A DNA stretch of 64,000 nucleotides from Cetorhinus maximus (taxonomy: Eukaryota): NCBI RefSeq assembly GCF_964194155.1, contig NC_135896.1, positions 97,526,001 through 97,590,000 on the forward strand. Direction: 5' to 3'. The notes beneath the pieces are model-generated. The model did no database searches and was not told the DNA's origin. It saw nothing but the letters and a program-made list of their open reading frames with translations. Made by a program: the position numbers and the translations under genes. Shown piece after piece: positions 2,385-37,598 of the stretch (positions are counted from its first letter, which is position 1; each line of letters begins with the position of its first letter).

Positions 2385-2770
2385 GGGGAGGTGATGGTGT
2401 AATGGTATTGTCACTGGACTGGTAATCCAGAGAACCAGGGTGATGCTCTGGGGACCTGGGTTCCAATCCCACCATGGTGGATGGTGGAATTTGAATTCAA
2501 TAAGAACCTGGAATTAAAAGTCTAATGATGACCATGAAACCACTGCCGATTGTCATTAAAAAAAACCCTCACTACTGTCCTTTAAGGAAGGAAATCTGAC
2601 GTCCTTACCTGGTCTGGTCTGGCCTACATGTAACTCCAGACCCACAGCAATGTGGTTGACTCTTAAATACCTGCTGAAATAGCCTAGCAAGTCACTGAGA
2701 GTTCAAGGGCAATTAGGGATGGGTAATAAATGCAGGTCTAGCCAGTGACGTCCACATCCCATGAACAAAT
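2385..2770 (+). mobile_element. tRNA-derived SINE, non-autonomous partner of the 47585 LINE
   Basis: A box TGGTGTAATGG, B box GGTTCCAATCC; body matches 47585-47867, tail matches 50707-50775. Confidence 0.9.
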
Positions 2771-4990
2771 CATCTCTCTTGAAGCTGGCATTCATGCTAA
2801 GTAGTTCTCTCCAGACCCTGAGCAAAGAGGCCATGCTTCAAGTATGAGCCTACACAATGAGTATTGACAATGAGTATTGGCAGGCTGTTCAGTTGTGCAC
2901 ATTACTTCAGTCAAAGCCTAGCCCAAACTTCGTCCAGTGTCTAAACAAGTGTTCCTGTTTCATCATAGGTCACTGAATAATTACCATGAATAAGAGCTAT
3001 GGGGAAACCATTTTTCTACATAGCCTGCGAGAGAAGAGAGGACAATTGTAGTTCCTTCAAAACTAACCAAGCAGAGATCAGCAGCCTCAGTTCAGAACCG
3101 GGCAGATAACTGGGCATTCACGATTTGTGTGTTAATCACATATCTGCACCACAAATGGTGCATCTGCCATTAAGTCAACCACTCTCTGTACATTCAAATA
3201 AAAAACGCATACACAATGGCCGGAGTTTTCCGGCCCCATGGGGTGGGCCAATATGGCGAGAAGGCCAAAAATCAGTTTCACGCCAGCTTGAAAGCACAGC
3301 GGGATTATCCGATGGTGTCCGCCATGGTGGAACGCCAATCCCACTGGAGGCCGGCGTGAACCCCATTGGCATCCCGGTAACGGGATGCAAAGTAAGGCCC
3401 GGCCTGAATCAACCCCCCCCGCCAACGCCTGATTTACCATTACACTGGCGGGAAAACACCCCGGCCCAGATCACGTCTGGACAAGTGAGACATGCAGAAG
3501 TCAGGACTTAGCGTCAGGGCCTTGCTCACAATGCGGACATCAGAGGAGAAGATGATGCTGGAGCCCTACAGCTACCGGACCCTGGAGGAACACGTGCATC
3601 GCGCGCCGGGTGGATCCTCATAGACACGGCTCTGCCGCGTAGCAGCTTACGGAAAGTAGGAGGTCTCAGTTGATGCTTTGGGCCTGCATTGGAACATCAT
3701 GGCCATGGCCAGGGGCTGCTACAGATGATCGGCGAGGGGGGAGGGGAGGAAGGTCCAGCTGTGAGTGGGAGAGGAAGGGGTACTGTGGGAGAGGGGGGGG
3801 TGTAAGGTTGGAAAGGGGGGAAATAAAGGTGTCGGGGGTGGGTGCAGGTGGTGGGGGGAGGGAGGGTGAAAGTGTCAGGGGGTGGTGAGGTTGGAAGGGG
3901 GAGGAAGGAGTATGGGGAAGGGAGAGTGTAGCCAGGGAGAATACAGCAAGTGAGGAGGTAGGTGTAAGGGGGGAGGTAGGTGTAACGAAGGGAGCTCAGG
4001 GGGGAGGTGTTTAGGGGGAGGTGGGAGTTTGGAGAGGGGTAGATGTCTGGGGGGAGTATAGAGTTCGGATGGGGAAAGGTGTCTCGGGAAAGGAGGAGAA
4101 AGGGTGGAGGAGGGAGTAAGGGGATGGGGGATGTCCAGGTGAATGTGCAAGGGACGGGTCTGTGGAGTCAATGACTGCCTCCTGGGGACCAAACTGAGGG
4201 TGGACGTGGGAGGCATTGGTGAGTGTGAGAGGGGGCAGAAGGAGCTGGAGGATGGGAGGGTGAGGGTGTGACGGTAGCGGCAGAAGGGATGGTAAAGGTG
4301 GTTGTTGGGGACTCGGAGGCAGACACGGACCCTGGGGATGTGGTGGAGGAGGTTGGGGAGGTCAATGTTAAAGGGGGTGGGATTCTCAGGAAGGTGGGAA
4401 CGTGCACACTCACCTGGACACCCTGGGAAGAAAGGGTTCGGGTTGGTAGGTGACAGTGGGGAGGTGGAAGGTGATACCAGGGGGGTCGACAGTCATGGGG
4501 GAAAGGACATGGGTATCTGGGTGAGGGGAAAGGATGGGGGAACTGATCAAAAATTGGTAACGACCATTGCTGTCAAAATCAAAAGTGAGCAGAATTCATG
4601 TTGGATGGGCACAGGTGCTGCCTGGGAGTGAGGTCAGTGGCTGGGCGGAGATGCAGATTGGCTCAAATGGACAACTGAAACAGAGCTCCAGCAGGCAGCA
4701 TTGAAAATGCTCAGGACAGTGAGATGAGTGTGATGGATGAAGGCTCCATGTGTTTGGGAAAGTGCTTGCACGAGGCTCCGATAGGCCCTGTCACACCCAC
4801 ACATCTCCCTCCAGAATCACTTGTGGTCCAGCTGTGTGCAGCTGAACTGCTAGTGGGGTGAATGCAGGGGGAGGACTCGCGAAGCCTGACAATGAGGCTG
4901 AAAGAAAACATTACACATTATTCAGTGAAAGTGAATATATTTTCAGATTATAAATTGACAAAATGTGTTCACCTGTGCAACCACTTGTGA

Positions 4991-6724
4991 TCAAATTTAT
5001 TAACTTTTCTAGGCCTACCACTTCTTCTAGGTGCTGCCCTGACATCCGCAGCAGGGGTGGAGACAGCCTGTGCGATGGTTGGCCCTGTTGCCTCTGATGG
5101 TCTCTGCGTGCATCCTCTGGAGAGCTGAGGCCTTGAGGTCCTCGGCATCCTTTGGCTGTCTTCCTGTGGGCCAGCTGCTCCCTCTGTGGTGACAGAGGAT
5201 AAGGTTAAAGGGGGTCACAGGAAAATGGGGCCTTGGAGGGAGAGGACAGCCCATGAGATTCCTGACCCAGGGGTGTCCAGCTGCCAATCCTCCTCCCTTC
5301 AGGTGCTCAAGGGCCCCGGCCTGAATTCTTTGATGGGAAGAAGCACTTGGACGGACATCAAGGTGCCTTGTTTCCCTCTCAGTTTGCCACTGCAGAAACT
5401 CATCCATGGCTACTGCGATGGAGTGCAGTTCTGTATGCATCTCTGAGTATTACTGGAACAGGGTTTCCATGGCATCCGCCATCTTCCCCATGGATGTCTC
5501 CATGTGTGCACATGTGGGCACCAGTTTATCAAAGAGCAGGCAGACGCACACCTGCAACGTGTCTGCCGCTCTGTTGAGGGCTCCCAACAGCTCTGCACGA
5601 TGTTCTCCCGCCTTCTGCTGACTCTCCAGGATGAGTTGGAAGGCCGAATCCAGAGGCTCGTCATCTGGCTCGGGCCTCACAGATGCCTCTTACCCAGCAT
5701 CCTCCGAGTGCTGGGGAGCTCGGCTGAACCTGCCTCCTCCTGCTGTGGACACATGTCTGTAAAGTGACCACCAGATTGTGAACCCGAGCCTGCTCTAGAT
5801 CTAGGTCCCACCGAGGTGTATGTCTCTGCGCTGGTGGAGGATGTGGGTAAGTGATGTGATGGGTCTTCCTGGCTGCTTATTTCCAGCTCTTCAATGGACG
5901 AGGTGAACTCTTGGCTGGAGGTGAGGTCTTGGATGGAGCTGAGGGACTGGCTGGCTGAGGATGTGGGTCACTTGGTAGAGCTCCCTGTGAACCAAAGTAG
6001 AGGGAATTAACGAATGGCAGCAGAGTCAAAAGCAGGAGAGAGAGCACTCACAGTTGTGTTGAGAGAGGGATGATGTGGTACAGGATCCTCACGTGGGTGT
6101 TCACCGTCAACCTCACCATCGCCACAGGCAGGGTCCACAACCTCACCAGCTAAACACAATGGCACGTTCCTCAAAGTGAGTGAGGGGCCTAATGTGGGTC
6201 ACTCCACCCCTGGTCTGGGATCTCTTCCTGCTGTTGTGAGTCAGCTTCTCCTGCATGAAAACAGATGGAGAGAGTGTGAGCAGGACACATGGCTCTGTGT
6301 GGAATGTTTGTGTGGTGAGCGGAGCCATGGACAGGATGAGGACGTGAGTTCCAGAGGACATGAGCCTGATGGAGATGTGAGGGTGTGTGTGAGAGTTAGT
6401 GGGGTTGTCCCTTGAGGTGTGAGATCCCTGTGGGTGTGTGATGGGTTTGTGAGTGTGTGAGTTGAGAGCGATTGACTTACTCTGGCAGAACAGATGAGAT
6501 CGTTTATCCTCTTCCTGCACTGGATGGCTGACCTCCTCTGTGCTATGGTGTGGCTCTGACCACCACTGTTGCCGCCTCCCAGGCCAGATTGGTGGCTCTG
6601 GTGGACCCCCTGCAGCCAGAGCAGGGGTAGAGGACATCGTGGCACCTTCCACTGTGTCCAGCAGGCACCCCGGGGAGGCATCACTAAATTTGGGGGCTGC
6701 CGTCTTCTTTGCTTTCGGGGCCAT
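4991..6724 (-). pseudogene. Harbinger Myb/SANT-like DNA-binding protein gene, three exons (approx. 6724-6481, 6250-6052, 5984-4991), frameshifted
   Basis: MAPKAKKTAAPKFSDAS..LLDTVE; RRSAIQCRKRINDLICSAR followed by a GTAAGT donor; EKLTHNSRKRSQTRGG; C-terminal RRSGRPRK. Confidence 0.8.
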
Positions 6725-6774
6725 CTATTGCCTGGAGCAGTCCCGGTCTGAAGACGTGAAGCAGTCTGTGCTCT

Positions 6775-6800
6775 GGTGCGCTTTAAATATGGCGCCGGGA
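6775..6800 (-). promoter_or_regulatory. Putative TATA-like core promoter of the Myb/SANT gene
   Basis: Minus strand GCGCCATATTTAAAG; a similar motif lies just upstream of the gene in the other copies (~21985, ~54768). Confidence 0.45.
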
Positions 6801-6998
6801 GTGAGGAAGCGCTGAGGTTACAGTATGGCGGGAAAATCTGAGCCTGTCCGCCAGCGGTCCGGAGTGTTTCCCGCCAATGCATTATTAATGAGGCTGGGAC
6901 GTGCCGGGAATGGGGCGAAACAGCGCCAAAACCTGCCAGTGCGGCCGGCGGGTAAAACAATTTATTTTCCCGCCCACTACCCCACTTTGTGCAAATCT

Positions 6999-7401
6999 AA
7001 ATTGTTTCATCTCTACCTTTTAGCCTATTTTGATCCCTTCCCTTCACCCCACCCCCACTAGGGCTATCTGTACCTTGCTTGTCCTGCTTTCTACCCTTAA
7101 TTAGCACATTCCTTAGATAATATCACCACCTTCAACACCTCTTTGTCCTTTTGTCTGTGACATCTTTTGGTTATCTCCACCTATCACTGACCCTCTATCC
7201 AGCTCTACCTGTCCCCCCCCACCCTTAAACCAGCTTATATTTCACCTCTTTTCTATTTTTACTTAGTTCTGTTGAAGAGTCATACGGACTCTAAACATTA
7301 ACTGTGTTCCTCTCCGCAGATGCTGCCAGACCTGCTGAGTTTTTCCAGGTATTTTTATTTTTGTTTTGGATTTCCAGCATCCGCAGTTTTTTTGCTTTTA
7401 T
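6999..7401 (+). mobile_element. Penelope-like element 3'/pLTR fragment with a hammerhead-like motif, inserted in the Harbinger right end
   Basis: 14-bp TSD CTTTGTGCAAATCT (6985-6998, 7402-7415); matches the reverse complement of 60639-61000. Confidence 0.85.
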
Positions 7402-7694
7402 CTTTGTGCAAATCTGGGGTGATTCCACCCAATGCACCAAAGTGATTTAACAAATAAGTTTACCGTTCCGTGGCTGAGATTCTAACACAAACCAACATTT
7501 TTCTGTTTAAAGATGGGCTGAGGCACAACAATTGACATATGCTCCCAATTTAGAGTTTAGCCTTTGATGATCAGGATTGAATTTGACTGATGAGGATGTT
7601 TCATACAGTTTACAAAAGAAATTAAAGCCTGGCCCTAGTTCTGTTTAAATGTCACAACATCGCAAATATTTACTAATCTAGGAAAGCTAACTTC

Positions 7695-8090
7695 AGGTAT
7701 GAAGGTAGATTGGAGAAGTTCGGACTGTTTTCCTTGGAGAAAAGGCAGCCGAGAGGAGATTTGATAGAGGTATTCAAAATCATGAGGCGTCTGGATAAGC
7801 AGATAGGGAGAAACTGTTCCCACTCGTGGGAAAGGGTCGAGAACCAGAGGGCACGGATTGAAAGTATTTGGCAAGAGGAGCAAAAGCGATATGACAAAAA
7901 AACTTTTTCACTCAGCCAGTGGTTAGGGCCTGGAATGCACTGCCTGTGAGTGTGGTGGAGGCAGATTCAATCAATGCATTTAAATTAGAATTAGACTCTT
8001 ATCTGAAAAGGAAGAATATACAGGAATACGGGGAGAAGGTGGGAGAATGGCACTAAACAGTCGCTCGTTTGGAGAGCTGGTGATTCTGTG
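7695..8090 (+). mobile_element. CR1 LINE 3' fragment
   Basis: LEKFGLFSLEKRQPRGDLIEVFKIMR. Confidence 0.85.
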
Positions 8091-8479
8091 AATGGAAAGG
8101 AAATGATTGGCTAATACAAGTATAATACATGAAAATAGTAAGAACAATTCACTTTAAAAGCCAAAAGGAACAGGGTAAATTTAATATGGTAGAAACAGAG
8201 GCTTATTGACATTCTACTGGCGAGGATAAAAATATCCACAGCACATTTAAGATATCTCTAAATGATTTGGCCAGTAAGATAAATCCTGCTTGAGCTCTAG
8301 GATGCATTTATTATCACACTACAAATTGTTAAACTGTGAATTAAATTTTTGACCACGCAACGTCTCTTCCTGACCCACGTTAGCTGATACCGTCATTAGT
8401 ATCCCCTCCTCTGGGACTGTCCCTCACCTTTCTGATGTCATCATGCTCTCCTCAAAAAACACCTTCTTGACCCCCCCCC

Positions 8480-8980
8480 CCACCATTCAATATGGTCAGG
8501 GCTGATCTTCAGCGTCACTCCCCATGTCCCTTAGTTCCCTGAGAGACCAAAAATCCGTCTATCCCAAACTTAAGTGTATTCGATGACGGAGCATCTACAA
8601 CCCTGTGGGGTAGAGAAATCCAAAGATTCACAACCCTTTGAGTGAAATAATTTCTCCTCATCTCAGTCCTAAATGATCGTCCCCTTATCCTGAGACTGTG
8701 CCCCCGTGTTTTAGATTCGCCAACCAGCGGAAACAAATCTCTCAGTGTCTATTCTGTCAAGCCATTCAGAATCTTGTATGTGTAAATGAGATCACCTCTC
8801 ATTCTTTTCACCTCCAGGGAATATGGGCCCAACTCAACCTCTGATCACAGGACAACTCTCTCACCCCAGGGATCAATCTAGTGAACCTTGGTCCAAAGCA
8901 AGTATACCCTTCCTTAAATATGGAAGCCAAAACTGCACACAGTATTCCAAGTGTGATCTCATCAAAGCCATGTCCTATTG
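8480..8980 (-). mobile_element. CR1 LINE 3' fragment
   Basis: FPLVGESKTRGHSLRIRGRSFRTEMRRNYFTQRVVNLW. Confidence 0.85.
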
Positions 8981-12056: not shown

Positions 12057-12648
12057 TGTGACTGTGGTACGTGGAAATCATTTTAAGGAAGGGTTCCAAT
12101 CTGGGAGGTCAGTTTTTAAGATTGTCCTGGACGGCTGCTGGTGCCGCAGCAACCCACGATTGAAATCCTCTTTGCCAGCGAGCTGCCTGTGGGTGTCCAG
12201 CAGGCACCTCCAGCCCATCAGTCCTAGTGTCAACAAGGATTGAGGCAGGATAATGGGTGTGCGCCAGGTCAACCCGTTCTGCTGCAGGGGTCAGTTTCTG
12301 CACCCGGTTTGTACTGTACCAGCACTGAACCAGCTTTGATCCAATGGGTTTCTGAAAACGTTCCTTCCATTGTGAAGGTAGAAGTGTTGAGAGAAACCCT
12401 GAATCATAACAATGACTTCAAATTGGAAGGTACAGTCTTAAAATTTGACCTCCCAGATTGGAATCCTTCCTTAAGGGACTGCGTACATTGTGTACAATAG
12501 TCTAGTAGAAGCCAGCATGGAGATAGTACCTATTCAGGGCTATACCTTGGAGATGTATACAGTTATGCATTACCAATAAACCATTTAATGTTCAACCATA
12601 CAAGCCTCCATGCCTCTTCATGAGAAACAAAACAAACCCTTACAACAG
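12057..12648 (+). mobile_element. Possible solo LTR interrupted by the TTAA MITE
   Basis: TGT...ACA ends, AATAAA near 12575; no clear TSD. Confidence 0.3.
12087..12470. mobile_element. MITE with ~40-bp TIRs and TTAA flanks (Kolobok-like)
   Basis: TTAA|GGAAGGGTTCCAATCTGGGAGGTCA ... TGACCTCCCAGATTGGAATCCTTCC|TTAA. Confidence 0.8.
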
Positions 12649-12741
12649 ATATATTCTTCAGTGTATTTTAATCACGTATTTATCAAGTTTATCGCATGAC
12701 CATTTTTACTTAAATCAAACACAGCCAGTCCGTAAGATGTA

Positions 12742-14185
12742 CAGCTTTGGTCCAAACATGGGCAAAAGAGCTGAACTCCATAGGTGAGGTGAGAGTGGTT
12801 GCCCTTGACATCAAGGCAGCATTTGACCAAGTGTGGCATCAAGGAGCCCTAGCAAAACTGGAGTCAATAGGAATTGGGGGGAAACTCTCCGCTGGTTGGA
12901 GTCATACCTAGCACAAAGGAAGATGGTTCTGGTTGTTGGGGGTCAGTCATCTCAGCTCCAGGACATCACTGCAGGAGTTCCTCAGGGTAGTGTCCTCGGC
13001 CCAACCATCTTCAGCTGCTTCATCAATGACCTTCCTTCCATCATAAGGTCAGAAGTGGGGATGTTCGCTGATGATTGCACAATGTTCAGCACCATTCGCG
13101 ACTCCTCAGATACTGAAGCAGTCCATGTCCAATTGCAGCAATTGTCCAGGTTGGACAATATTCAGGCTTGGGCTGATAAGTAACATTCACCGACCATTTC
13201 GCCTCATGGTCAAAGATACAAAGTCACACTCCCCCGGGTGGTCTCTAGAGTGGGAACTTTTTAAAAAGGATACATTTCCCTTTCACAGAAAGTTAAGTAA
13301 CATTTCAGGAATGTGTCTCCTCAATTTGGCTTTAAGAGAAACGATAAAGTTAAACATGATAAAAAAAGATTTTTTTTTTTGCCTATAAAAACAGAAGCTC
13401 CCCAGCTGAACTCTCTCAGTAGACAGGTGCATTTTAAATGACCATCTCCAGCAAGAGAGAATCTAACCATTGCCCCTTGACATTCAATGGCATTACCATC
13501 ACTGAATCTCCCACTATCAACATCCTGGGGGGGTAACCATTGATCAGAAACTGAACTGGACTAGCCATATAAATACCGTGGCTACAGGAGCAGGTCAGAG
13601 GCAAGGAATCGTGCAGTGAGTAATTCACCTCCTGACTCCCCATAGCCTGTCCACCATCTACAAGGCACAAGTCAGGAGTGTGATGGAATACTCCCCACTT
13701 GCCTTGATGAGTACAGCTCCCACAGCATTCGAGAAGCTTGACACCAACCAGGACAAAGCAGCCCGCTTGAATGGCACCTCATCCACCACCTTCAACATTC
13801 ACTCCCTCCACCACCGACGCACAGTGATAGCATGTGTACCATCTACAAGATGCACTGCAGGAACTCGCCAAGGGTCCTTAGGTAGTACCTTCTAAACCCA
13901 CGACCACTACCATCTAGAAGGACAAGGGCAGCAGATAGATGGGAACACCACCACCTGGAAGTTCCCCTCCAAACCACTCACCATCCTGACTTGGAAATAT
14001 ATTGCTGTTCCTTCACTGTCACTGGGTCAAAATCCTGGAACTCCCTTCCTAACAGCACTGTGGGTGTACCTACACCTCAGGGCCTCCAGCGGTTCAATAA
14101 GGCAGCTCACCAACACCTTCTCAACTAGGAAAGGGCAATAAACGCTAGCCTAGCCAGCAACGCCCACACCCTGTAAATGAATTTT
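12742..14185 (+). mobile_element. 5'-truncated copy of the tRNA-headed LINE (RT to 3' end) with a foreign insert at ~13192-13436
   Basis: GVPQGSVLGPTIFSCFINDLP, FADD; matches 49583-50775. Confidence 0.9.
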
Positions 14186-17820: not shown

Positions 17821-17844
17821 TCACCAGCTTCTTTTGCCAGTTTA

Positions 17845-18239
17845 GGGGAAGATGATAGCATAGTGGTAATATCGCTGGACTAGTAACCCAGATGCCCAGG
17901 CTAATGCTCTGGGGACATGGGTTCAAATCCCACCATAGCAGCTGGTGGTATTTAAATTTGATCAATAAAATCTGAATTGAAAACTAGTTGTAGTGATGGT
18001 GACCATGAAAATATCATCGATTGTTGTTAAAACCCATCTGGTTCACTAATTCCCTTTAGGGAAGGAAATCTGCTGCCCTTTCCTGGTCTGGCCTACATGT
18101 GACTCCAGATCCACAGTCACGTGGTTGAGTCTTAACTACCCTCCAAAATGGCCGAGCAAGCCATTCAGTTCAAGGGCAATTAGGGATGGGCAGCAAATGC
18201 TGGCCTTGCCAGCGACACCCACACCCATGAAAGAAAAAA
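17845..18239 (+). mobile_element. tRNA-derived SINE, partner of the 47585 LINE
   Basis: A box TAGCATAGTGG, B box GGTTCAAATCC; junction CAGTT|CAAGGG at 18170/18171. Confidence 0.9.
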
Positions 18240-18393: not shown

Positions 18394-21300
18394 GGCTGGA
18401 ATCGTCTGGCTCTGTTGGTGTCCGATGTCATGGCGGGCGGGGGTGGGGGCGGGGGGGTGGGGGCGGGCGGGGGTGCGGGTGGGGGTGGGGGCAGGGACAA
18501 TACAGGGGAGAAGGCCAAAGTTGGTTTCACACCGGTGTGAAAGCACAGAGGGACCACCCGATGGTGTCCACCATGGCAGAGCGCGAATCCCACTGGAGGA
18601 TGGCGTCAACCCACTTTGCATCCCGGTAATGGGATGCGGAGTAAGGCCCGATCAGGATTATCCCAGCCCCCACCCCCACACACACACCAGATTTACCGTT
18701 ACGCTGGTGGGAAAACATGTCGGCCCAGAACATGTTTCGACAAGTCAGGACTTACTGTTAGGGCCTTGCTCAGATCGTCAGATCGTGGACATCTGAGGGG
18801 GCAGGGAGAGCCGGAGGGAGGGGGGGGATGGGCAGAGAGGGATGTCCATTAGGACGTTGCTCAGATCGCGGACATCCGAGGAGAAGATGATGCTGGAGCC
18901 TTATAGCTACTCAACCCAGAGGAACACCTGCAGCGTGTGCTGGGTGGGCTCTTATGGACAGGGCTCCACCGCGAAGCAGCTGACGGAGGGTGGGAGGTCC
19001 CCATAGATGCTTCAGGCCAGCATTGGAACATCACAGTCTTGGCCATGGACCACTAGGGATGATCGGGGTGGGGGGTGGGTGGTGGGTGGGTGGAGAGGGA
19101 AGTACAGCTATGAGTGGGAGAGGAAGTTGCACTGGAGGGTGGGTGAGGTTGATAGGGGGAGGACAAAGGTGTCGGTGGGGGCGGTTAGGTTGGGGAATGA
19201 AGGTGACGGTGGGGGGTGATGTTAGGAGGGTAAGGGAGGAGGGAATGCAGCAAGTGGGGAGGTAGGCATATGGGGGAAGGAAGGTGTAAGGGAGGGAGTT
19301 CAGAAGGGGGAAGGAGTTTGGGGGGAGGAAGTAATGGTGGAGTAGGGAGTAAGGTGGGGGTGGTGGTGGGGAATGTCCAGCTGAACATGATAGAGAGGGG
19401 TGTGTGGACTCAATGACTGCCACCTGGGAGCACATGGAGGGGGGCATGGTAGGACGGAATAGTGAGTATGAGGGGGTGGGGAGGGTGTGGGCTGAGGGAG
19501 CCGGAAGTTTGGGAGGGTGAGGGTACGACAGTAGCAGTAGAAGGAACAGTGAGGGTGGTTGTTGGGGACTCGGAGGCAGACACGGACCCTGGGGGTGTGA
19601 AGGAGGAGGTCGGGGAGGTCAATGTGGATGGGGGTGGGATTCCCAGGAAGGTGGGAATGTGCACACTCACCTGGACATCCCGGAAAGAAAGGGTTCGGAC
19701 TGGTAGGTGAGGGTGGGGAGGTGGAAGGTGATGTCAGGGATGGGGGAAAGGACATGAGGTGAAAGGATGGGGGAGCTAACAATATAATTCACTACTACCT
19801 TGTTTGTCGAAATTGAAAGTGAGCGGAGCCTCATGTTGGACGGGCACAGGTGCTGCCTGGGAGTGAGGTCAGTGGGTGGGCGGAGATGCAGCTCAGCTCA
19901 TATAGACAACTGAAACAGAGCCCCAGCAGGCAGCATTGAAAATGCTCGGGACAGTGGGATGAGTGTGATGGATGAAGGCTCTGTGTGCGTGGGAGTGTGC
20001 TTACATAGGCTCTGAATGTCTCTGCCACACACATACTTCTCCCTCCAGGATCACTCGTGGGGGGAGGGTGCAGTGGGTGGACTCGCAAAGCCTGTCAATG
20101 AAGCTGAGAAACAACATTACACATTGTTCAGTGAGAGTGAATATATTTTCAGATTATAAAGTGGCAAAATGTGTTCACCTGTGCAACCAATTGTGATGAT
20201 AAATTCTTAACTTTTCTAGGTCTACCACTTCTTCTAGTTGCTGCCCTGACATCTGCAGCAGGGGTGGAGACAGCCTGTGCAATGGTTGGCCCTGTTGCCT
20301 CTGATTACTTTGATGTGTGTCCTCTGGAGGGCCGAGGCCTTGAGGGCCCTGGGCTTGCTTTGGCTGTCCTCCTGTGGGCCAGCTGCTCCCTCTGTGGTGA
20401 CAGAGGACGAGGTCGAGAGGGTCACAGGAAAAGTGGACTTGGAGGGAGGGGACAGCCTCTGAGATTCCTGATTGGATGACCCAGGGGTGTCCAGCTGCCA
20501 CTCCTCCTCCCTTCAGGTTCCCAAGGGCCCCGGCCTGACTCCTTGGGGGGGAAGGAGCGCCTGGAGGGACATCAAGGTGCCCCATTTCCCTCTCATGTTG
20601 CCACTGCAGGAACTCACCCGTGGCTCCCGCGACGGAGTGCAGGTCTGTGCGCATCTCCACGTTCTGCTGGACCAGGGTCTCCATGGTGTCTGCCATACTT
20701 CAAACAGAGACCTCCATACACGCACATGTGGGCACCACTTCACCAGAGAGCAGGCTGACACACTCGTCCGATTCACGTGCCACTCTGTTGAGGGCTTCCA
20801 ACAGCTCTGTGTGATGTTCCCCCGCCTTCTGCTGACTCCCCAGGATGAGTTGGAAGGCCAAATCCACAGGCTCATCATCTGGCTCGGGCCTCACAGATGC
20901 CTCTTCCCCAGCAGCCCTCCGAGTGCCGGGGAGCTCGGCTGAACCTGCCTCCTCCTGCTGCGGACACGTGTCCGTGTGGTGACCACCAGATTGTGAACCC
21001 GAGCCTGCTCTAGATCTAGGTCCCACCAAGGTGTGTGTCTCTGCGCTGGTGGAGGGTGTGGGTAAGCGCTGTGTCGGGTCCTCCAGGCTGCTTATTTTTA
21101 GCTCTTCAATGGAGGAGGTGAACTCTTGGCTGGAGGTGAGGTCCTGGATGGAGCTGAGGGACTGGCTGGCTGAGGGTGTGGGTCACTTGGCAGAGCTCCC
21201 TGTGAACCAAAGTAGAGAGAATTAGTGAATGGCAGCAGAGTCAAAAGCAGGAGAGAGAGACACTCACAGTTCCGTTGAGAGAGGGATGGTGTGGCGCAGG

Positions 21301-22193
21301 ATCCTCGCGTGGGTGTTCACCGCCGACCTCACCATCGCCACAGGCAGGGTCCACATCCCCACCAGTCAGCACGATGGCACACTCCTCAAAGTGAATGAGG
21401 GGCCTAATGTGGGCCACTCCACCCCTGGTCTGGGACCTCTCCCTGCTGTTGTGAGTCAGCTTCCCCTGCATGAAAACAGGTGGAGAGAGTGTGAGCAGGA
21501 CACATGGCACTGAGTGGAATGTTTGTGTGGTCGGGATGAGGATTCGAGCTCCAGAGGGCATGAGCCTGATGGAGATGTGAGGGTGTGTGAGAGAGTTAGT
21601 GGGGTTGTCCCTGGAGGTGTGAGATCCCTATGGATGTATGATGGATTTGGGAGTGTGTGTGTTGAGAGTGATGAAGTGGTTGACTTACTCTGGCAGAACA
21701 GATGAGATCATTCATCCTCTTCCTGCACTGGATGGCTGACCTCCTCTGCGCTCTGGTGGCTCTGACCACCACTGCCTCCCAGGCCAGATTAGTGACTCTG
21801 GTGGACCCCCTGCGGCCAGAGTGGGGGGTAGGGGACATCACAGTGCCCTTCCACTGTGTCCAGCAGGCATCCCAGAGAGACGTCATTAAATTTGGTGCTG
21901 CCGAATTTGGTTCTTTGCTTTCTGTTTGCTGTCACCTGGAGCGCTCCTGGTCTGAAGACGTGAAGTAGTCCGCGCTCTGAGGAGCTTCTAATATGGCGCC
22001 CGGAGCGAGGAAACGCTGAGGTTATGGCAAATCCGAGCCCGTCAGCCAGTGATCCGGAATGTTCCTCTTGAATACTCGGGCGCACTGAGAAGGGGACGAT
22101 ATGGCGCGAAAACCTGCCATTGCAGCCGGTGGGTAAAGCGACTTATTTCACACCCGCTAACGCACTTTGTGCACATCTGGGAGAATTCCACCC
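18394..22193. mobile_element. Non-autonomous Harbinger carrying a Myb/SANT gene, copy 2
   Basis: Ends GGCTGGAAT / ATTCCACCC; flanks CAG/CAA; colinear with 3218-7430. Confidence 0.85.
20195..21940 (-). pseudogene. Harbinger Myb/SANT-like gene, disrupted
   Basis: KFNDVSLGCLLDTVEG; AQRRSAIQCRKRMNDLICSAR; GKLTHNSRERSQTRGG. Confidence 0.8.
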
Positions 22194-24450: not shown

Positions 24451-24885
24451 CTGAACAGAATAGTTCCTGCAAGGGACAGCCATTTGGTTTTCAAGGGAGC
24501 TGATTGTAAACCTAGGAGCAGACAGACAGTTCAGGAAATCACATTTCTGTTCCATTACAGAATAGTAAAGGGGAAAGGCATTTGCTTTGCAATAGCTATG
24601 CTAAAAGGATCCACTTCACCATGAAGGAAATTAAAAACTTCAAAAGAATTTGTTCTAGTTCTAGAATTACAGCTTCAGTTGCACATAATAAAAGATTCCT
24701 AATAGTTACTACTTCCAACAAACTGAAGATATACAGGTAATGTATAACAGAACCCCTCCTGCCCAAGTTAGAACCATGGATGTTTGAGGCGTAGTAATAG
24801 GTCATTAGCTCGTTGTATCAAATCAATACTAACTCTCCCACCCTGCTGTCTCCCCAGAGCCTACCTTTCTCTACTTTTCCAAAAA

Positions 24886-25245
24886 TTTGTTCATGGGATG
24901 TGGGTGTCACTGGCTGAGCCACCATTTATTGCCCATCCCTAAATGCCCTTGAGAACTGAGTGGCTTGCTAGGCTATTTCAGAGTCAACCACATTGCTGTG
25001 GGTCTGGATGTGAATATCTGTTGTGATTGGGATTCAGCTATCTGCATAGCTTTTACTCCAGAGTAGGACATTAGTGAACTAGATGGGTTCATGGTCATCA
25101 TTAGACTTTTAATTCCAGATTTTTTACTGAATTCAAGTTTCACCATCTGCCGTGGTGGGTGGGATTCAAACCTGGGTCCCCTGGGCATTACCCTGGGTGT
25201 CAGGGGTACTAGCCCAGTGAAAATACCACTACACCACCATCTCCC
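24886..25245 (-). mobile_element. tRNA-derived SINE, partner of the 47585 LINE, with an internal replacement
   Basis: Reverse-complement match to 2385-2770. Confidence 0.88.
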
Positions 25246-25429
25246 TGTCCAATTTTTCCTTAAAGTAGGAAATGATCTCTACTTCAGCCACGTTCCTGTG
25301 GTTACACATTCCAATGTTCCAACAACCTGTGTAAAGACATTTCTCCTAACTGTTCTTCTTGATCTCTTAGTGATTTGTTAAATTAATGCCCTCCCCTCCG
25401 CCATCGTTGATTTTGAAGCCGAGGAAATA

Positions 25430-26914: not shown

Positions 26915-27960
26915 AGGATGGTGAGGATGCAGGAGATTACAGAGGTAGAGGGGAGGCGAGGCCAGGGAGGGATTTGAAAAAAAAGGATGATAGTTTTAAC
27001 ATCGAGGGTTTGCTTAACCAGGAGTCAATGTAAGAGCAGCAAGCACAGGGGTGATTGGTGAACAGGATTTGCTACGAGTTAAGACACAAGCGGAGTTTTG
27101 GATGACAAGTTTACAGAGGGTTGAAAGTGGGAAGCCAGCCAGGAGTGTATTACAACAATCAAGTCCCGAGGTAACAAAGGCATGAAGGAGGTTTTCAGGA
27201 GATGAGCCAAGGCAGGGACAGAGTTGGGTGATGATATAGAGGTGGAAATAGGTGGTCTTGGTGACAGTGCAGATACATGATTGAAAGCCTCAGACTGTTG
27301 CCAGGAAAAGGAATGGAGTCGGTGCTTAGGGTGAAGATCTTGGAACAGGGACCGAAGACAATGGCTTCAGTCTTCCCAATATTGAATTGTAGAGAATTTC
27401 GGTTCACCCAGTAGTGGATGCCTAACAAGCACTCTGACAATGTAGAGATGAAAGGGCTTAGAAAGGCAGTGGTGAAACAGAGCTGGGTGCCATCAGCATA
27501 CACATGGAAACTGACATGATTTTTGATGATGTTGCCAAGGGGCAGCATGTAGATGATAAATAGGAGGAGGCCACGGGTAAATCCTTGGAGACACCAGTGG
27601 TAACTTTGCAGCATGGAAAGAGAATCCATTGCAGGTGATCTTCTGGCTGAAATTGTGTACCTAAGAATGGAAACAGGCAGGTGCAGTCTCACCTAGCTGG
27701 ACAATTAAGATGTTTCAGGAGAAAGGTGTGATCAACCATTTGAAAGACTGTAGACAGGTCAAGAAGCTTGAGAAGGGAAAGTTTACCTGTATCACAGTCA
27801 TATAGAATGTCATGTGCACTTTGATAAGAACTGCTTCCATACTGTAGTAGAGCAGCACCTGATTGGATGGATTCAAACATGGAGTTTTGGAAAAGATGGG
27901 CACGAGAGCTGACATCATGTTCAAGGACTTTAGTGAGGAAAGGGGGTGTTGGAGATGGGT
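26915..27960 (-). mobile_element. L2-clade LINE RT fragment
   Basis: LLDLSTVFQMVDHTFLL; LLFIIYMLPLGNII..FHVYADGTQL; NIGKTEAIVFG. Confidence 0.85.
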
Positions 27961-29825: not shown

Positions 29826-29849
29826 TTATGAACAAAACATCTGTGTTTC

Positions 29850-30145
29850 TCAAAAAATGATGTTGGTTGAGAGATAAATATTGGCTGGGAAACCAGGAAA
29901 AGTCCCTAGCTCTTTTTTGTATAGTACCATGGAGTCTGTTACAGCCACCTGACGGCTGTTGATGCCTTGGTTTTAACATCTTATTCAAAGGATGTGCCCC
30001 CAGCCACAACCACCCCACGCACCTCTGACAGTGCAGCACTCACTTAGTGCTTCACTGGACTATGTGGTCAGGTCACTGGCAGTGGAACTTTAAGACCTGT
30101 CCTTCTGATTCAGTGGTGAGCATGCTGCGGCTGAGCCACAACTGA
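29850..30145 (-). mobile_element. Deu-type SINE 5' part, probably continuous with 28765-28925 before the CR1 insertion
   Basis: tRNA-like head CAGTTGTGGCTCAG on the minus strand; GAGTGCTGCACTGTCAGAGGTGC core. Confidence 0.6.
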
Positions 30146-31939
30146 TATTGGCAGAGACACCGATAATATGCTATCTGTACCATAGTCCTGAAAACCAACT
30201 GTTCGTTACTGTCTTTTCTACATCTTCCCTCGGCGTCTAATAGAGTGGAGTTAATTCTAATCTAAGTGGTTGACAATACTTACAGAAGCGTCAGCAGCTA
30301 AGTGGGACCATCTTTCATGATCTGAATACGTTAAAGGTGGTGACACATGCAACTTTTACCTCCACCGTGCTGCTTTGGAATAATTCTGAAGAGCAAAAGT
30401 GTTAATGATGCCAGGCGTGACTGCTCTGAAAAGCTGGCTTTCAGCTAACATAACAATATATCTCCCAAAAACCTGAGACAAGCCTTTATTCACTAATCTT
30501 TGCATTACTCATGCAATCTTTTTGATGTAAAATGACTGAAATATGAGTAATCCTCAGACAGACACCTGAAGGATTACTATCCACAGGAAAGTATCAGCAT
30601 TTTAACAGAATTGAGGGGATAATCATTCTCTCATAAGAAGGCCTTCTGACCTCTTTGAAGCAGTCAATTAAACAATAACAGAGTAATTTGATCATCAAAG
30701 ACATGAAGGTGGTATAGATTCACCTACATGATGATGGAAATAGATCTGGATAATATGGTAGCTTTAATATTTAATGTTTTTTGTTAGAAGGTACATCCAA
30801 GCGATTCAATAGAGATAGTCAAAGGGTTGTGTCTAATTACATCGGGTTTCTTTAAATTTTAATACTTGGCTACCTTACACACAGGTACTGAAAATATACT
30901 GCATGAGCTTTTGCAACAGAAACACATATTTAATCACAAGCCCATGAATAATTCTGCAATTCTCACGTCACACCACAATTAAGGCATGCTGCAGGGCTTG
31001 TCAGGGCTTTGCTTTTGATCTGAAGCAAATTGAAATTTTGGAAGCTGTACCGCGGAACAGTGGTCTGGGAGTTTCCAGAGTAAAGCGTTTCAAAGGCATC
31101 GCTTTTAATCGGAATTGTTTACCCCACTGCCACCTCATCTTCTAAAAGTTGTCCGAGGGCAAGAATTCGGACATCATCAAACGATGTCCAGAAGATTCAG
31201 CAGAGTCAATCAGAATCCTTTGGCTGTGTCGCACCTCACCTGGACTCTGAGCCATCCTTCACTCACATTCCTTCCATTTCTCATATTCATATAAGAGAAA
31301 AATACAGAAAAAAGATTGCATTTATGTATCGCCTTTCGTGGTCTCAGAATGTCCGAAAGTGTTTTACAACCAACGAGTGTTTTTTGGACTGTAGTTGCTG
31401 TAGGGAAACACTGACACAGTTACTCCTAGGTCTTTACTCCAGGCATCAATCGAGTGGGCAGTGCCCAGAGCACCCAACTATTCCTGCCAGCGGGAGGCCC
31501 AGCCAATTTCCAGGGCCACCTTCATTACCATGTTGCTGGCCAGCAACACACACCCTGAACTGGAGACCCGCTGTAGCTCGCCAGCTCTAGGCCATCACAT
31601 TGTCAGGTGGCATCAAGGCTGACCCACCCAGCAGGTAAACGTGTCCGGGCAGTGGGGCCAGTACAGGGGATGGGAACTGAGTCCAGGGGGAACAGAGGGC
31701 CCATATTATCTATGCAGAGCCCAGAGGTGTACTCAAGCTCCTCCTGGTCTCATGATGGGGTCTGTTCCTCTCCACCGCCAGGCGGAGCATGCATATCGCA
31801 CAAGATTGTTAAATGGATCCCAAGCCAAATGGTGAAGTATGAAACTAGACACAGATCCTTTTATTGACAATAGGTTTGTTGATAGAATGCAGGATTACAT
31901 ATCTCTGCCTCCTATCTAACAACAGCCCAATATCCCAAG

Positions 31940-32190
31940 AGTCTCTTTTTATATTCTTTTGAGTAATAACCAATTAACGAAAAGGGATAAATCAACAAAT
32001 TAACAAAATAAATTAAACAATTTAAGGGACCAGCTTCTTAAAGGGACACTGCAACAAAAAATACAAAAAGCTTAAAGGAAACTTAACCAACTAAATCAAA
32101 ATGGTGTTTTGGGCGTCAACGATGCACCCCAGCCCCCTCAGTGCTCCCCAATCACAGAAGGCCTCCGCGTGCCTCCTCTCACAGAATTTT
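31940..32190 (-). mobile_element. Tx1/L1-clade LINE 3' end
   Basis: Minus-strand translation EAFCDWGALRGLGCIVDAQNTILI* followed by a T-rich UTR. Confidence 0.5.
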
Positions 32191-32379
32191 ATAGCAAAGA
32201 AGGCTATTCAACCCATTGCACCTGTGCCAGCTCTCTAAAAGAGGTAGCCCCTGCTCTTGCCATCTTTCCAAAACCTTTAAAACACTTAAAAAAAATGTAT
32301 CCACTGCCCTTTTAAAACCTATTTATGAGCCCTGCCTCCAACCCTCAACAACTCGTAACATAGAAAAGCTCTTAACTAT

Positions 32380-33091
32380 GGGCAGAATCTTGCCTTTGGA
32401 TGGTGTGTGGGCCCCACCGGCTCAGTGGTGGGCGGGCAGCCGACCACCGCCACCGAAACGGGGCCTGCTGCCATTTTAAGTGGGCGGGGCCAATTAAGGC
32501 CCTTCCAGCGGCATCCCCGACGGGAAGCGCTATACGATTCCTGTGCAGGGTGGGAGGGAATCCCCAGCTGTCAATGTGAGCTCTTTCACGCATGCGCACG
32601 ACAGAGCGCACTGCTCCCTGAGGCAAAGTCCTGTCTCAGGGAGAATACTGATAGTGTCAAAAACATTAAAAATAGAAACATTAAAAAATTATTCACATGT
32701 CCCCCTCACGTGACAATGTCACACGAGATGGGACATGTTAATAAAGAACACATGCACTTTATTAATTTTTTACAAGACGGACATGAAACTTCATCCGGCC
32801 AGTGGATGAGGTTTCATGAATAATCAGGAGTCCACTGGGGCTCTTGGCCTGCCCACCAGCCATAAGGTTGGACGGGCAGGTCTTTAATTACTTTAAATAG
32901 CCTGTCAATGGCCTCAATTGGCCATTGACAGGTCGGCGGGCGGGCAGCTGATTTCGCTGTCCACCCCCACCTTCCTAAAAATTTAAATGGACCGGGATGA
33001 CATTGGGGATTCCTCCCAACATCATCCCGTGTCATTTTCCCCTCGGCAACCGGGCCCCACCCCCAAATCGCCGAGGGGGAAAATCCTGGCC
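32380..33091. mobile_element. Harbinger-type hairpin-array MITE, copy B
   Basis: Ends GGGCAGAATCT / AAATCCTGGCC; TSD TAT. Confidence 0.85.
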
Positions 33092-33254
33092 TATGTCTAT
33101 GACAAGCTTAAATCTGTTCCTCTCGTTATTTTAACTGCAAGTTGCAAGGTTCCATCCACTTTCCCCAACTTGCCTCATCGAAATCACTCAGCTTAAAATA
33201 ACCCTATTTTCATAACGTCCTTTATTTTAATGAAAAGAGTTTCAGTTTTTTTGT

Positions 33255-33670
33255 AACACTCAGCCAGTCAGGCAGCACCTGCGGAGAGAGAAACGCAGCT
33301 AATGCCTCAAACCGATGACCTTTTAACAGGACTGGAAGAAGTTAGAAATGGAGCACATTTTAAACAATTCTAGAGACAGGGAAAGGAGGGAGTTAAGAAA
33401 TGGAACACAATGGGAAGGTCTGTGAGAGAGGGGAGGGCAAGAGACATGAAAACGAGATGATTGTGCAAGGCACAAGGGGAGGGGGATGGTAATGGTAAAT
33501 AAAGAAACAAATTATGTGTCTAAGGAAGAACTAATGGGGAAATGCAATGACCAACAGCTGCCGCCCAAATAAGAATGAGCAGTGGTTATAACCTGAAATT
33601 GTTGAACTCAATGTTGAGTCCAGAAGGCTGTAAATTGCCTAATGGAAAGATGAGGTGATGTTCCTTAAAC
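33255..33670 (-). mobile_element. Old Penelope-like element 3' fragment
   Basis: GIY-YIG C-terminus EHHLIFPLGNLQPSGLNIEFNNFR plus a degenerate tail. Confidence 0.7.
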
Positions 33671-34818
33671 ATACATTGTGCTCAGCTTCTGTCGACTTTC
33701 CTCATAACCAAAGCATCTCATCCCTGATATATTCTTAGTGAATCTCACCCGCATCCTCTCAATTGCTTGAACAATCTTTGAAAGTAAGATGCCCAAAATT
33801 GGACTGAATCTCCAGAACAAAAACCGCAAACTAAAACAAGGAAGGGACACCACCATCGTCTTGAAAGTGGATCTGAACTTGGTTTACCCAGCAGGGAAGG
33901 AGTGGCCCTAAAATCACAGGGCTGTATTTACTGCTCCCTCTCTGCCTGCTCCCAATGTGCCTCGGGACATTTCAATCTGTTGGGAAAGGGGCGTTTTTAC
34001 TTAGAAGTTTATAACTCACTCCGCAAAATAATAGGACTCCAATCATTTCTTGACACTCATAGGAATTAATCATCCATGAATAACTATTACTGACAATAAT
34101 TGAACACGCTCTTAACAGCACTTAAGGCGAAACTTTGCAAAGTTGTTGAAGAATTGAAACGTGTTAGGGCCAGTTCGTGGTGCTTAATAATGTGAACCGC
34201 GTGGGTATCAGCTGAGGCAGCTCTTGGAACCTGCCTCTTCTACTAGCCCCATTATGGCATCACTGAGCCATGATTAGCAACCCTCCGACAAATAGGGCGG
34301 TATATGAAGAGAAAGGGAATTCTGAGGTATCTCTCCCTAACACCCACACTCTTTTGTACCTTTTCCTCAATTCTGTGAGAATTTACACGTTTCATAGCGT
34401 TATTGCATTCAGTTAGCTTCTTCCCTTGCTCCTCATCAATAACAAGCACGACTCCCTAGACTTTGTTTTACCTTGAGAACTGTCAATCAACCAGTCAAAC
34501 TGGAGACAGTTAGAGAGCGAGATTAATAAAGGAAGGTTGCCTTTAGCAGAGTTGCTTATTCAGGTGTGCCCTTGGAGAAATTAACAGTTCCTAGAAAATA
34601 TTTCTATCCCATGGTTGAATCTTAATTGTGCGCTGCTGAGCCTCCTATCAGCTAAAGGTTTTCCCTGTCAAATAATTAAGCCTATTGCCAAAACTGAAAT
34701 ATTGCTATGTGCATTAAATCGCATTTATCCAAAACAAAATGCACCTGCCACCCTTCCAATAGAAACCGACTTAAAAGGCAAAAGCTTTAAGTTCATATTA
34801 CGACGCTGTTCGGAGACA

Positions 34819-34949
34819 GGGTGGGATTTTCCGGCCCCACCATGGTGGGACCCGCCATGGTGCAGGATGCAGCGGGCCAGACAAAAGACCCTTGACTTTC
34901 GGCGGGACCGGAAGACCCCAGTGGTGGGTGGGGCCAGAAAGTCCCACCC
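34819..34949. mobile_element. Small Harbinger-type MITE
   Basis: TIRs GGGTGGGATTTTC / GAAAGTCCCACCC; related to 1658-1785. Confidence 0.7.
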
Positions 34950-35759
34950 TTGAAGGCAGCTTAATTGACTCTTTCCCACCCAACTCATGGGTGGGCACTA
35001 ATTCCCCACCTGAAATCAGGATGCAACTCCATTACTTGTGACGTGTGTTAGGTCTCGAGGCAATTACAAGGGCCAACTGGTCGGATCATTTACCGTGCAC
35101 ACTTTGCCCAGTTGTACCAGGCAGCAAAGAGGAAAGGGGCCCCTCGGAAAAAAAAATAAGTTCAGAATTACTTCCATGGGTCCAGGAGGAGCGGGAGCAG
35201 TCCTCCAAGCGCTACATGAATACTGAGCCCACTGTTAACCCCAGCTCTGCACACCCCCCTCACCCACCAACCTCCTGGGCTGGCCTCAAAGCTGCCCAAT
35301 AACACTGGGTGCAGTAGGCCCGGCTGGCTTGACGTGTGTGACTGGCTGGTGGCATAATAACAAGACAAGGCCCTCAAGATCGCTAAGGTTCCATCTACTG
35401 CCTCGGTTCCATTCCTGGAGTTAAAAGCTACCCCAAAGTGAATTTCTAGATATTTCCTGAACCAGCTATTTTCATGCAAATACACTGCATATAAATTTTC
35501 GCCATCAAGGCCTTGCAAAAATTGGGCTTGACTATATCAGAACTGTCTGTCCATAATATTTACATTAAAATGATGTAAAGTTAAAACCTTATTGAAATCC
35601 ATACTATTTTGAAACATAGCAACGATTATTACTGCAAGATGTGAGTGAGGCATATATTACTCAAATACATAGATGGCTACAAATTTTATAAATTCAATTT
35701 AAGAAAGAAATCAACAATTCCCCAGCAGAAGGAAACACGGACACAATAAATCATCCTAT

Positions 35760-36411
35760 GGGCTAAATATTCCCCCTGTCGGGGAGGAAGTGCAGGAGTG
35801 GGTGTGGGGGGGCAGCTCTTCGATTGGCGCCCGCGATTGGGGACGCGCCGCCATTTTTCGTGGGCGGGCCAATGAAGGCCCGCCCAGAGTGACATCCGTA
35901 CGGAAGCTGTGTGTGTGCACTCCCTGTGTGGGCGAAGGAGTGCTCCGATCTCCCTGAGGCTAAGTGCTGCCTCAGGGAGATCGGTTCCCAAAAGGAAAAA
36001 GTTGCTGTGTCAACAATTTCATTCACCATCCATGTCCGCTCATGTGACAATGTCACATGAGTTGGGGCATGGACATAACTTTAAGTAAAAGTGAATCTTA
36101 ATTTTTTAGTTCAGTCATGAAGCCTCATCCCGCCCATGGATGAGGTTTGATGCTTTTTCAGGCGGCCGCCAGTGCTCCCGACCTGCCCACCAACCTTAAG
36201 GCTGGACGGGCAGGTCCACTAATTGCTTTAATTGATTTTTCGATGGCCTCAATAGGCCGTTGACAGGCTGGCGGGTGCACAGCTGACTTGGCTGTGCCCC
36301 CGCTGACCTGAAAATGCAAATGACACAGGATGGCGTCAGGAGTTCCCCCTTACGTCATCCCGCGTCGGCGAGTGGGCCCCGCCCCCGCTCGCTTACCGGA
36401 AAATTCTTACC
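35760..36411. mobile_element. Harbinger-type hairpin-array MITE, copy C
   Basis: TSD TAT; colinear with copies A and B. Confidence 0.85.
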
Positions 36412-36954
36412 TATGTTTCTCAGAAGTTTGGATGAATGATGATTTGGGAATACCCACTTTGCCTTCATCACGTTACATGTCACTTGTACAGTCTTTAGTG
36501 GGCTGGCTTTTAAACAATGAATCACAGGCATCTCAACTTGACCAGTGTGACCTTCGTTGACATCAAGTGCTTATTGCCCTCCTCCAAAACAGCAACTGTA
36601 GTGAGAGCTCTGTCCTGCAGTGTTAAATTATAACATAAATTCTTTGGTTTTTGCACTCAGACAAATTGTTTTCCATATATTAGTGAGAGTTTTGGTTGGT
36701 ATTATTTAATGTAAACAAAAAAAAAATAGATAACATTTGTAAAGAAACATGAACCAGCTCCCTAGGTAGCAGTTGGCTATTGCAGATTCCTTGGTTTGTA
36801 CCTCAAATACATAATTAAACTGATTGTGATGCAGAGTTACAGAGGGCTCCTGTTAAACTATCAGTGTGTTACAATGTGTTGGAGGAAAATAGATAGATCC
36901 CATCCCATAATATCCTAATGATTAGTCAAAGCACCTCCTCAAATTACAGGTTCA

Positions 36955-37235
36955 TTTTTATTTTTGTTCTTGGGCTGTGGGCAATACTGACAAGGAAATG
37001 TTTATCGATTAAGTAAGTCACTGGTTAGTCAATTAATCGTCATCCACCTCATCTGGGACTGGAGTCACATGAGGCCCAGGGCAGATTTCGTCCCTAAAGG
37101 ACATTAGTGAACCTGTCAAGTTATTACACCAAACCTGCATCTTTTAATGCTAGCCAACAAACTATTACATTTATTAAATTCAAGCTCATAAATTGTTGTT
37201 TTAGGATTTGAACTTATCATTCCTAGATCACTAGT
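36955..37235 (-). mobile_element. Older degenerate copy of the tRNA-derived SINE
   Basis: GGAGTCACATG...CCCTAAAGGACATTAGTGAACC...GGATTTGAAC. Confidence 0.6.
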
Positions 37236-37244
37236 GGAGTTTTG

Positions 37245-37598
37245 TTTCATTCTTTCATGGGATGTGGGTGTCACAGGTGAGGCCAGCATTTGTTGCCCAT
37301 CCCTAATTGCCCTTGAACTGAGTGGCTTGCTAGGGCATTTCGGGGTCAGTTAAGAGTCAACCACATTGGAGTCACATGTAGGCCAGACCAGACCAAGGAT
37401 GGCAGATTTCCTTCCCTAAAAGGACACTAGTGAACCAGATGGGTTTTTACAACAATCAACAATGGTTTCATGGTCATCATTACTGAGACTAGCTTTTATT
37501 AATTGAGTTTAAATTACACTGTTGCTATGGTGGGATTTGAACCCATATCTCCAGAGCATTAGTCTGGTCCTCTGACATAATCACTACGCCACCATCTG
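37245..37598 (-). mobile_element. tRNA-derived SINE, partner of the 47585 LINE
   Basis: Reverse-complement match to 17845-18239, same CAGTT|CAAGGG junction. Confidence 0.88.

Follow-up and report, generated by a model that had tools for sequence, protein, structure and literature searches.

A 64,000-nt stretch of the Cetorhinus maximus genome (NCBI RefSeq assembly GCF_964194155.1, contig NC_135896.1, positions 97,526,001 to 97,590,000 of the forward strand; hereafter the window) carries several short interspersed elements (SINEs) that have head, body and tail in common with a long interspersed element (LINE) in the same window. Which of the two gave rise to the other, and which RNA polymerase transcribes the LINE? 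[quoted passage not shown] We found that the shared head and body are the standard, fixed 5′ end of the LINE family. Judged from its sequence, this autonomous 3.3-kb LINE with one open reading frame (ORF) is likely transcribed at full length by Pol III from its tRNA-type head, and the SINEs are very probably products of repeated internal deletion of the headed LINE.

Anatomy of the headed LINE and its SINEs

The preliminary description had reported four SINEs in the window that follow the LINE leader and then jump to the LINE end, so that head, body and tail are all shared, and self-BLAST and alignment of the window copies bore this out. The four match the LINE leader (47585–47867) at 69–78% identity (E 1e-25 to 1e-60) and the LINE end (50705–50782) at 81–84%; the leader match stops at 47867, the final T of CCACTCAGTT, and CAAGGGCAA begins at 50707. 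As described, the copies at 17845 and 37245 have an identical junction (both CAGTT/CAAGGG, the slash marking the joint) and the other two carry extra bases there. The copy at 24886 reads CAGTT/CTCAAGGG, a junction with 377 exact genomic matches whose extra CT agrees with the LINE's own TTCTCAAGGG, and the copy at 2385 has CACTGAGAGTTCAAGGG, which looks like a private change. A fifth, degenerate SINE stood up for its body (local score 117, against a maximum of 35 in 200 shuffles) but not for its tail (28, against a shuffled maximum of 30). The shared 5′ part measures 283 nt in the window LINE, a copy with deletions, and 315 nt in the family majority. The SINEs are 355–390 nt long, dispersed (thousands of exact junction matches) and non-coding, with a LINE-derived tail. 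Heads form three grades, V (oldest), O and Y, and the window copies are as follows.

47585–50782, + strand: full-length, decayed headed Zenon LINE with the youngest head grade, Y; 91.5% identical to the family majority
47585–47680, + strand: its tRNA-Thr-like head, with an A box TGGCGTAGTGG at 47595–47605 and a B box at about 47651–47662 (one mismatch in the window copy)
47681–47867, + strand: body common to the SINEs, with the final letters CCACTCAGTT; AATAAA at 47691
47872–50719, + strand: single frame for an apurinic/apyrimidinic-type (APE) endonuclease and a reverse transcriptase (RT), with no ORF1; stops and at least four frame changes break the window copy
50707–50782, + strand: 3′ end common to the SINEs, with the last ORF codons, AATAAA at 50728 and an A-rich tail
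2385–2770, + strand: SINE with a Y-grade head and an apparent private change at the junction (self-BLAST, alignment, tree)
17845–18235, + strand: SINE of junction type A (CAGTT/CAAGGG) with an older, O-grade head
24885–25248, − strand: SINE of junction type A′ (CAGTT/CTCAAGGG) with a Y-grade head and a partly replaced body
37240–37598, − strand: SINE of junction type A with an older head (placed in O by the tree; V versus O ambiguous by score, 346 versus 336)
36955–37184, − strand: degenerate fragment of an older body, possibly followed by what is left of a tail (tail match within chance)

The ORF stop (TAG, 50717–50719) sits within the segment that forms the SINE 'tail'. A search with the head-to-LINE joint gave 5,889 candidates, of which 40 were scored, and 20 loci were taken at full length. 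The majority of these 20 copies is 3,291 nt long, lacks ORF1 and ends in an A-tail. Its one frame without stops opens at nt 320 and spans 969 codons; mean identity of copies to the majority is 91.7%. All 20 end in A-rich sequence and not in a microsatellite, and unaltered copies gave Pfam matches to Exo_endo_phos_2 and RVT_1 above cut-off. The nearest proteins are APE-RT proteins of 930–1000 aa at 33–44% identity, and many APE-RT homologues of 930–1000 residues (P0001–P0120) lie on 3.2–3.7-kb contigs of marine data sets. Compared by eye over their first 400 letters, the Zenon consensuses of CarCar, ScyCan, RhiTyp, HypSab and SquAca agree with the family in head, body, joint and leader (PMC13343379). 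On this 5′ match we tentatively assign the window LINE and its family to the elasmobranch Zenons of the CR1 group. The published elements CarCar_Zenon-1, ScyCan_Zenon-1, RhiTyp_Zenon-1, HypSab_Zenon-1 and SquAca_Zenon-1/2/3 (Stuart et al. 2026, PMC13343379) appear to belong to the same family, and elasmobranch Zenons are reported there as 2.9–3.3 kb long, without ORF1 and with an A-tail. The main text of that article contains 'tRNA' and 'polymerase III' 0 times and 'SINE' once, in the references; the head, the avoidance of T-runs and the derived SINEs are not described in it.

Head and body proved to be the normal start of the element. Eleven of the 20 full-length loci start no more than 11 nt from the first base of the head (window coordinates) and 19 extend to the 3′ tail, and an exact 24-mer spanning the head-to-LINE joint occurs 3,210 times in the genome (control, 0). 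With a LINE-only query, chosen so as not to select for heads, 26 of 29 non-self loci continue into the head, 19 reach to within 30 nt of its start and three end at 343–349. We also sampled the genome at random (77 evenly placed 10-kb stretches, 770 kb; 80 were asked for and three were absent), and family BLAST matches sum to 8.8% of these bases. The head is present on six of the eight sampled copies that reach the ORF start. The 39 head matches in the sample divide into six that run into the ORF, 23 typed as SINE and 10 unclassified; a rough extrapolation from the six counts gives ∼30,000 headed LINEs genome-wide. The preliminary description had allowed that LINE-borne heads might be rare and nest among SINE copies as independent insertions, which is not what we found: they are the normal full-length form. 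Target-site duplications were not above control among 11 full-length LINE copies (longest flank match 5.5 nt on average, versus 4.8 nt for mismatched pairs), which are old.

Truncations at the 5′ end seem clustered at majority positions 342–349, just past the joint at an A-run (L094, L300, L305 and L311), and again at 178–197, in the middle of the body (L295, L306, L312 and L317). Reverse transcriptase pausing, RNA cleavage or microhomology with A-rich targets could account for these clusters. The upstream flanks of L094 and L097 are unrelated and thus point to no alternative 5′ end.

The head resembles a tRNA. ARAGORN reads the SINE head at 2391–2479 as tRNA-Thr, and among 93 heads it recognised six at the default setting and 34 at a 90% threshold, mostly as Thr(AGT), compared with none of 93 shuffled heads. 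Both A and B boxes were found in all three grades. Rfam returned no tRNA match in three full-length loci and no meaningful match otherwise, and no structure emerged from a consensus fold of 43 LINE heads. The tRNA-Thr head suggested a MetaSINE, an identity that we rejected because no MetaSINE domain matched: Meta-, Deu- and UCON3-domains were not seen in the body in a by-eye check against the supplement alignments of PMC7245038, from which five body motifs are absent. Among 80 metagenome loci, which are distant (24–40%) and not the closest homologues, the head profile had no match, and relaxed ARAGORN calls there were scattered and look like noise.

T-run avoidance and the polymerase of the LINE

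A tRNA-type promoter together with a coding strand free of TTTT makes transcription by Pol III likely, the shortest working Pol III terminators being TTTT and TVTTT (PMC8466645). The 3,291-nt majority contains neither of these and has five TTT, against 47 AAA, 49 CCC and 41 GGG. Within the ORF there are three TTT where 11.6 ± 2.5 are expected; none of 3,000 synonymous permutations was as low, and A, C and G runs are normal. Under a CpG-aware null the expectation is 9.4 (P 0.0003). At third positions, T is used over C at 3 of 38 sites where TTT would form, compared with 153 of 328 where T stands alone, and 5-mers with four or more T number one against 8.1 expected. Pyrimidine runs are not depleted (7 versus 4.5 expected), which argues against splice-acceptor avoidance. 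The O and V majorities, over their first 1.8 kb, also have no TTTT. Genomic copies at ≥85% identity hold 0.27 TTTT/kb, in agreement with the 0.29 that a source lacking TTTT would show after 8% neutral decay. By comparison, other RT segments of this genome (n = 30) have 3.9 TTTT/kb and six control majorities, some of which may be one family, have 3.2–5.4. Of the 80 outside loci, 62 have a frame of at least 400 codons and none of these (0/62) is TTTT-free; the TTT z-score is −3.5 for the family and −3.0 for the lowest outside ORF. In TTTT density the lowest outside ORF is L256 (0.68 TTTT/kb).

How might such a LINE have arisen? Judged by eye on their first 400 letters, the Zenon consensuses of hagfish and coelacanth open without the head (PMC13343379), so it was probably acquired once by the ancestor of the LINE. 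SquAca carries a V-grade head, and CarCar and ScyCan carry the Y grade (PMC13343379). We propose that a headless ancestral Zenon took up a tRNA-derived head once, before sharks and rays split. The internal A and B boxes would then, on the likelier view, have become the promoter, and selection would have cleared Pol III terminators from the 2.9-kb ORF. As in T+ SINEs, transcription would stop downstream of AATAAA, at a T-run lying at the 3′ end or beyond it, and the ORF would be translated by some route that needs no in-frame AUG. For the picture as a whole, that is, a coding LINE transcribed by Pol III since before the shark/ray split, purged of terminators, translated without cap or AUG and giving birth to SINEs in one step, we consider the case evenly balanced. 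If it is correct, a Pol III promoter driving a terminator-free ORF of 969 codons would break the division between LINEs and SINEs, in a family that makes up about 9% of sampled bases in a 4-Gb genome, and would provide a natural example of translation from a long Pol III RNA.

Several observations weigh against transcription by Pol III. Given the codon usage of the ORF, the absence of TTTT is not significant by itself (1.8 expected, P 0.13; CpG-aware, 0.96, P 0.35); the significant signal is TTT, which is no terminator, and words with T at four of five positions reach only P 0.024 under the CpG-aware null. T content (20–22% in the family versus 23–25% in controls) accounts for part of the gap. 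No intact copy was found, the longest open stretch being 573 of 969 residues. Pol III transcripts carry no cap, and in the majority ORF no ATG occurs in frame until residue 285, leaving translation of an uncapped RNA unexplained. Upstream, the nearest ATG (nt 348) begins a frame of 35 codons, which runs over the start of the endonuclease out of frame; in most V copies this ATG is ATA. Some LINEs do start at non-AUG codons or independently of a cap. At the 3′ end, a run of four or more T just before the A-run occurs in only six of the 20 full-length copies and six of 27 sampled ends. Terminal T-runs can lengthen after insertion (PMC8466645), so the evidence from 3′ T-runs is weak. The loss of ORF1 is typical of all Zenons and is therefore no evidence for Pol III; in the L1 system, Pol III RNAs need no ORF1p (PMC2666806).

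These difficulties lend some weight to an alternative that we regard as possible though rather doubtful, in which the head is a captured 5′ untranslated region and the LINE is still transcribed by Pol II (or by host-gene read-through), with the A and B boxes serving the derived SINEs or RNA structure. T-runs would then be avoided owing to RT slippage on U-runs, RNA stability or similar. LINEs are commonly regarded as products of Pol II (PMC5786205), and a capped RNA would solve the problem of translation. In the family majority AATAAA stands ∼45–55 nt ahead of the A-tail (type A SINEs have AACAAA), a position that suits Pol II too. In addition, TT is depleted besides TTT (77 versus 94.8), which could reflect a general bias, and TTTT alone, as noted, is not significant. 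However, the depletion is specific to T and to the sense strand, is not a pyrimidine-run effect, holds in all three grades and is absent from other LINEs with similar enzymes, both in this genome and elsewhere. Furthermore, copies begin sharply at the tRNA head, and AATAAA is found at leader position 115 in all grades. Transcription by Pol III from the head is the reading that we carry forward.

Origin of the SINEs

Since the ends of the headed LINE hold both its promoter and the tail that the RT recognises, any deletion of its middle would yield a ready-made SINE. We propose that such deletions arose by template jumping with 0–2 nt of microhomology and, with high confidence, that this happened several times. 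The preliminary description overlooked the T-run avoidance of the LINE and the presence of several junction families, of which the genome has at least four. Exact genomic matches number 4,402 for junction B (CTGAA/CAAGGG), 2,917 for junction A (CAGTT/CAAGGG), 377 for junction A′ (given above) and 89 for junction C (the CAGTTGTA/TTCAAGAAGG pattern). V heads occur on 23 of 25 C copies and Y heads on 11 of 15 A′ copies, and in the random sample B pairs with Y and A with O. Because each of at least four junctions is tied mainly to one head grade, repeated internal deletion is the most likely origin, and of the two alternatives offered in the preliminary description, internal deletion of the LINE is favoured for the present SINEs. 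The other, capture of a SINE head by the LINE, survives in part: the head was probably acquired once by the ancestor of the LINE, with a free SINE or a tRNA as its possible source.

The junctions themselves fit this reading. Every SINE tail begins within the ORF, and the LINE joint is invariant, whereas the SINE joints differ on both sides. Junction C keeps ∼25 additional coding bases and, past the 'shared' end, GTA(T) from the LINE leader. Its usual joint, GTA-T-TCAAG, has 1 nt of microhomology to the LINE leader of this genome; the ScyCan leader reads GTATTCAAC, which would give 5 nt at C (PMC13343379 supplement). A 4-nt TCAA microhomology for junction C was considered and rejected, having only five exact matches. 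Assembled contigs from four organisms hold the family and joints A, B and C. Headed copies with joints at other internal positions of the LINE were also seen singly (L066:9580-9815, L077, L117, L160, L162, L168 and L055); these are deletions without obvious amplification and make up a spectrum of breakpoints. With all of their sequence taken from the two ends of the LINE, the SINEs are short internally deleted elements (SIDEs) by origin and SINEs by anatomy. Here, SINE birth would take one step. The usual model runs in the opposite order, the head joining a LINE that is already deleted. The repeated births, with their graded heads, would make SINE formation datable.

As the preliminary description had proposed, we aligned copies, mapped junctions and compared the phylogeny of LINE-borne and SINE-borne heads, which share all grades. 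From 145 profile matches, 100 were near full length and 93 rows were classified, the LINE rows being enriched by the searches; 12 junction labels had been set by eye before the head tree was made. Both LINE and SINE heads lie within every grade, and the Y clade (97/100) contains 36 LINE and nine SINE heads. The LINE label needs 17 changes on the tree, five of them forced by starred branches. A tree of the next 900 nt, the ORF leader, from 51 of 57 LINEs tracks the head grade with four changes (minimum 2, shuffled mean 16.3; V supported at 99), so head and ORF have been inherited together. Two points speak against a fully simple picture. The head tree is weakly resolved (7 of 90 branches starred, bootstrap not settled), and type A tails carry private changes (AACAAA, CCTTG) that are absent from the six LINE tails read from the O search; type A may thus derive from a second deletion in an older SINE and not directly from the LINE.

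The same private tail changes would suit an independent and older SINE, with whose heads the LINE was repeatedly re-equipped or homogenised by template switching or gene conversion, and template switching does make RNA–LINE chimeras (PMC13174262). SINE heads are also slightly farther from the class majorities than LINE heads (identity 0.86 versus 0.91 for Y, 0.85 versus 0.89 for O and 0.85 versus 0.88 for V, with majorities defined by the search-enriched LINE sets). We nevertheless consider this origin improbable. A single, unchanging head-to-LINE joint runs through all grades and the five species represented in PMC13343379, in contrast to the varying SINE joints; the Y LINE has kept 23 nt that are missing from type B, which therefore cannot be the donor of the Y head; the tails of the SINEs start within the ORF; and the grade of the head goes with that of the ORF. 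The idea that a site-specific LINE inserted separately into SINE copies or beside them, for which the abundance of targets (23 of 39 head matches in 770 kb) might speak, can be rejected with near certainty, as no second, leftover SINE tail follows the LINE end in any of the 20 full-length copies, head grade follows ORF grade, and 5′-truncated copies break within the head, which must therefore have belonged to the copied RNA.

Related elements and other repeats of the window

HE1, the shark SINE paired with the LINE HER1, is probably a different family from the present SINEs. Like them, it is a tRNA-derived elasmobranch SINE that shares its tail with a CR1-group LINE (PMC3747384); HE1 is a V-SINE. 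A parallel in origin is Persaeus, a SIDE of lepidopteran Zenon, in which a short element likewise combines both ends of a 3.3-kb single-ORF Zenon, the end of the ORF included, and which arose at least four times (PMC6740152). Persaeus is described there as having no tRNA homology and no Pol III promoter, whereas the deletion described here leaves a whole SINE with a tRNA head. Bipartite SINEs of RTE and Vingi LINEs, such as Bov-tA and SINE2_Gav, also hold 5′ and 3′ parts of a LINE, but in these the tRNA head was added after the deletion and the LINE has none, unlike the head-bearing LINE described here (Kojima 2018, PMC5786205).

The T+ SINEs B2, Dip and Ves resemble the present family in having AATAAA, a T-run in some copies and an A-tail; they differ in being short and non-coding and in carrying terminators in most copies, compared with about a quarter to a third here (PMC8466645). 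In tRNA/LINE-1 and promoter-swap chimeras a small RNA is similarly fused to a LINE 5′ end, although these comprise 21 human loci, mostly with antisense tRNA halves and with no amplified family (PMC13174262). In the open-access literature, with Repbase, Dfam and subscription papers outside the scope, we did not find the head, the T-run avoidance, these SINEs or any Pol III-transcribed autonomous LINE described.

Further pieces of the headed Zenon family are present in the window.

1–396, + strand: 3′ fragment, cut by the window edge (self-BLAST)
12740–14182, + strand: 5′-truncated copy in two pieces (self-BLAST)
41170–41986, + strand: 5′-truncated copy (self-BLAST)
43673–44764, − strand: older internal fragment, 73% identical to 49224–50319, its sense strand without TTTT

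The window also contains other repeats. A G-rich 3.5-kb repeat family occurs at 3245–6998, 18494–22178 and 52594–53493; its two long copies are 79% alike, and its long frames gave no Pfam match. Short elements with inverted termini, resembling miniature inverted-repeat transposable elements, lie at 12083–12474 (43 nt at 91%) and 60987–61456 (92 nt at 92%). A 366-nt repeat pair (7001–7366 and 60639–61004) is 91% identical and younger than the SINEs studied here, and other RT-coding LINE fragments are found on the − strand at 27195–27692 and 62494–63666.

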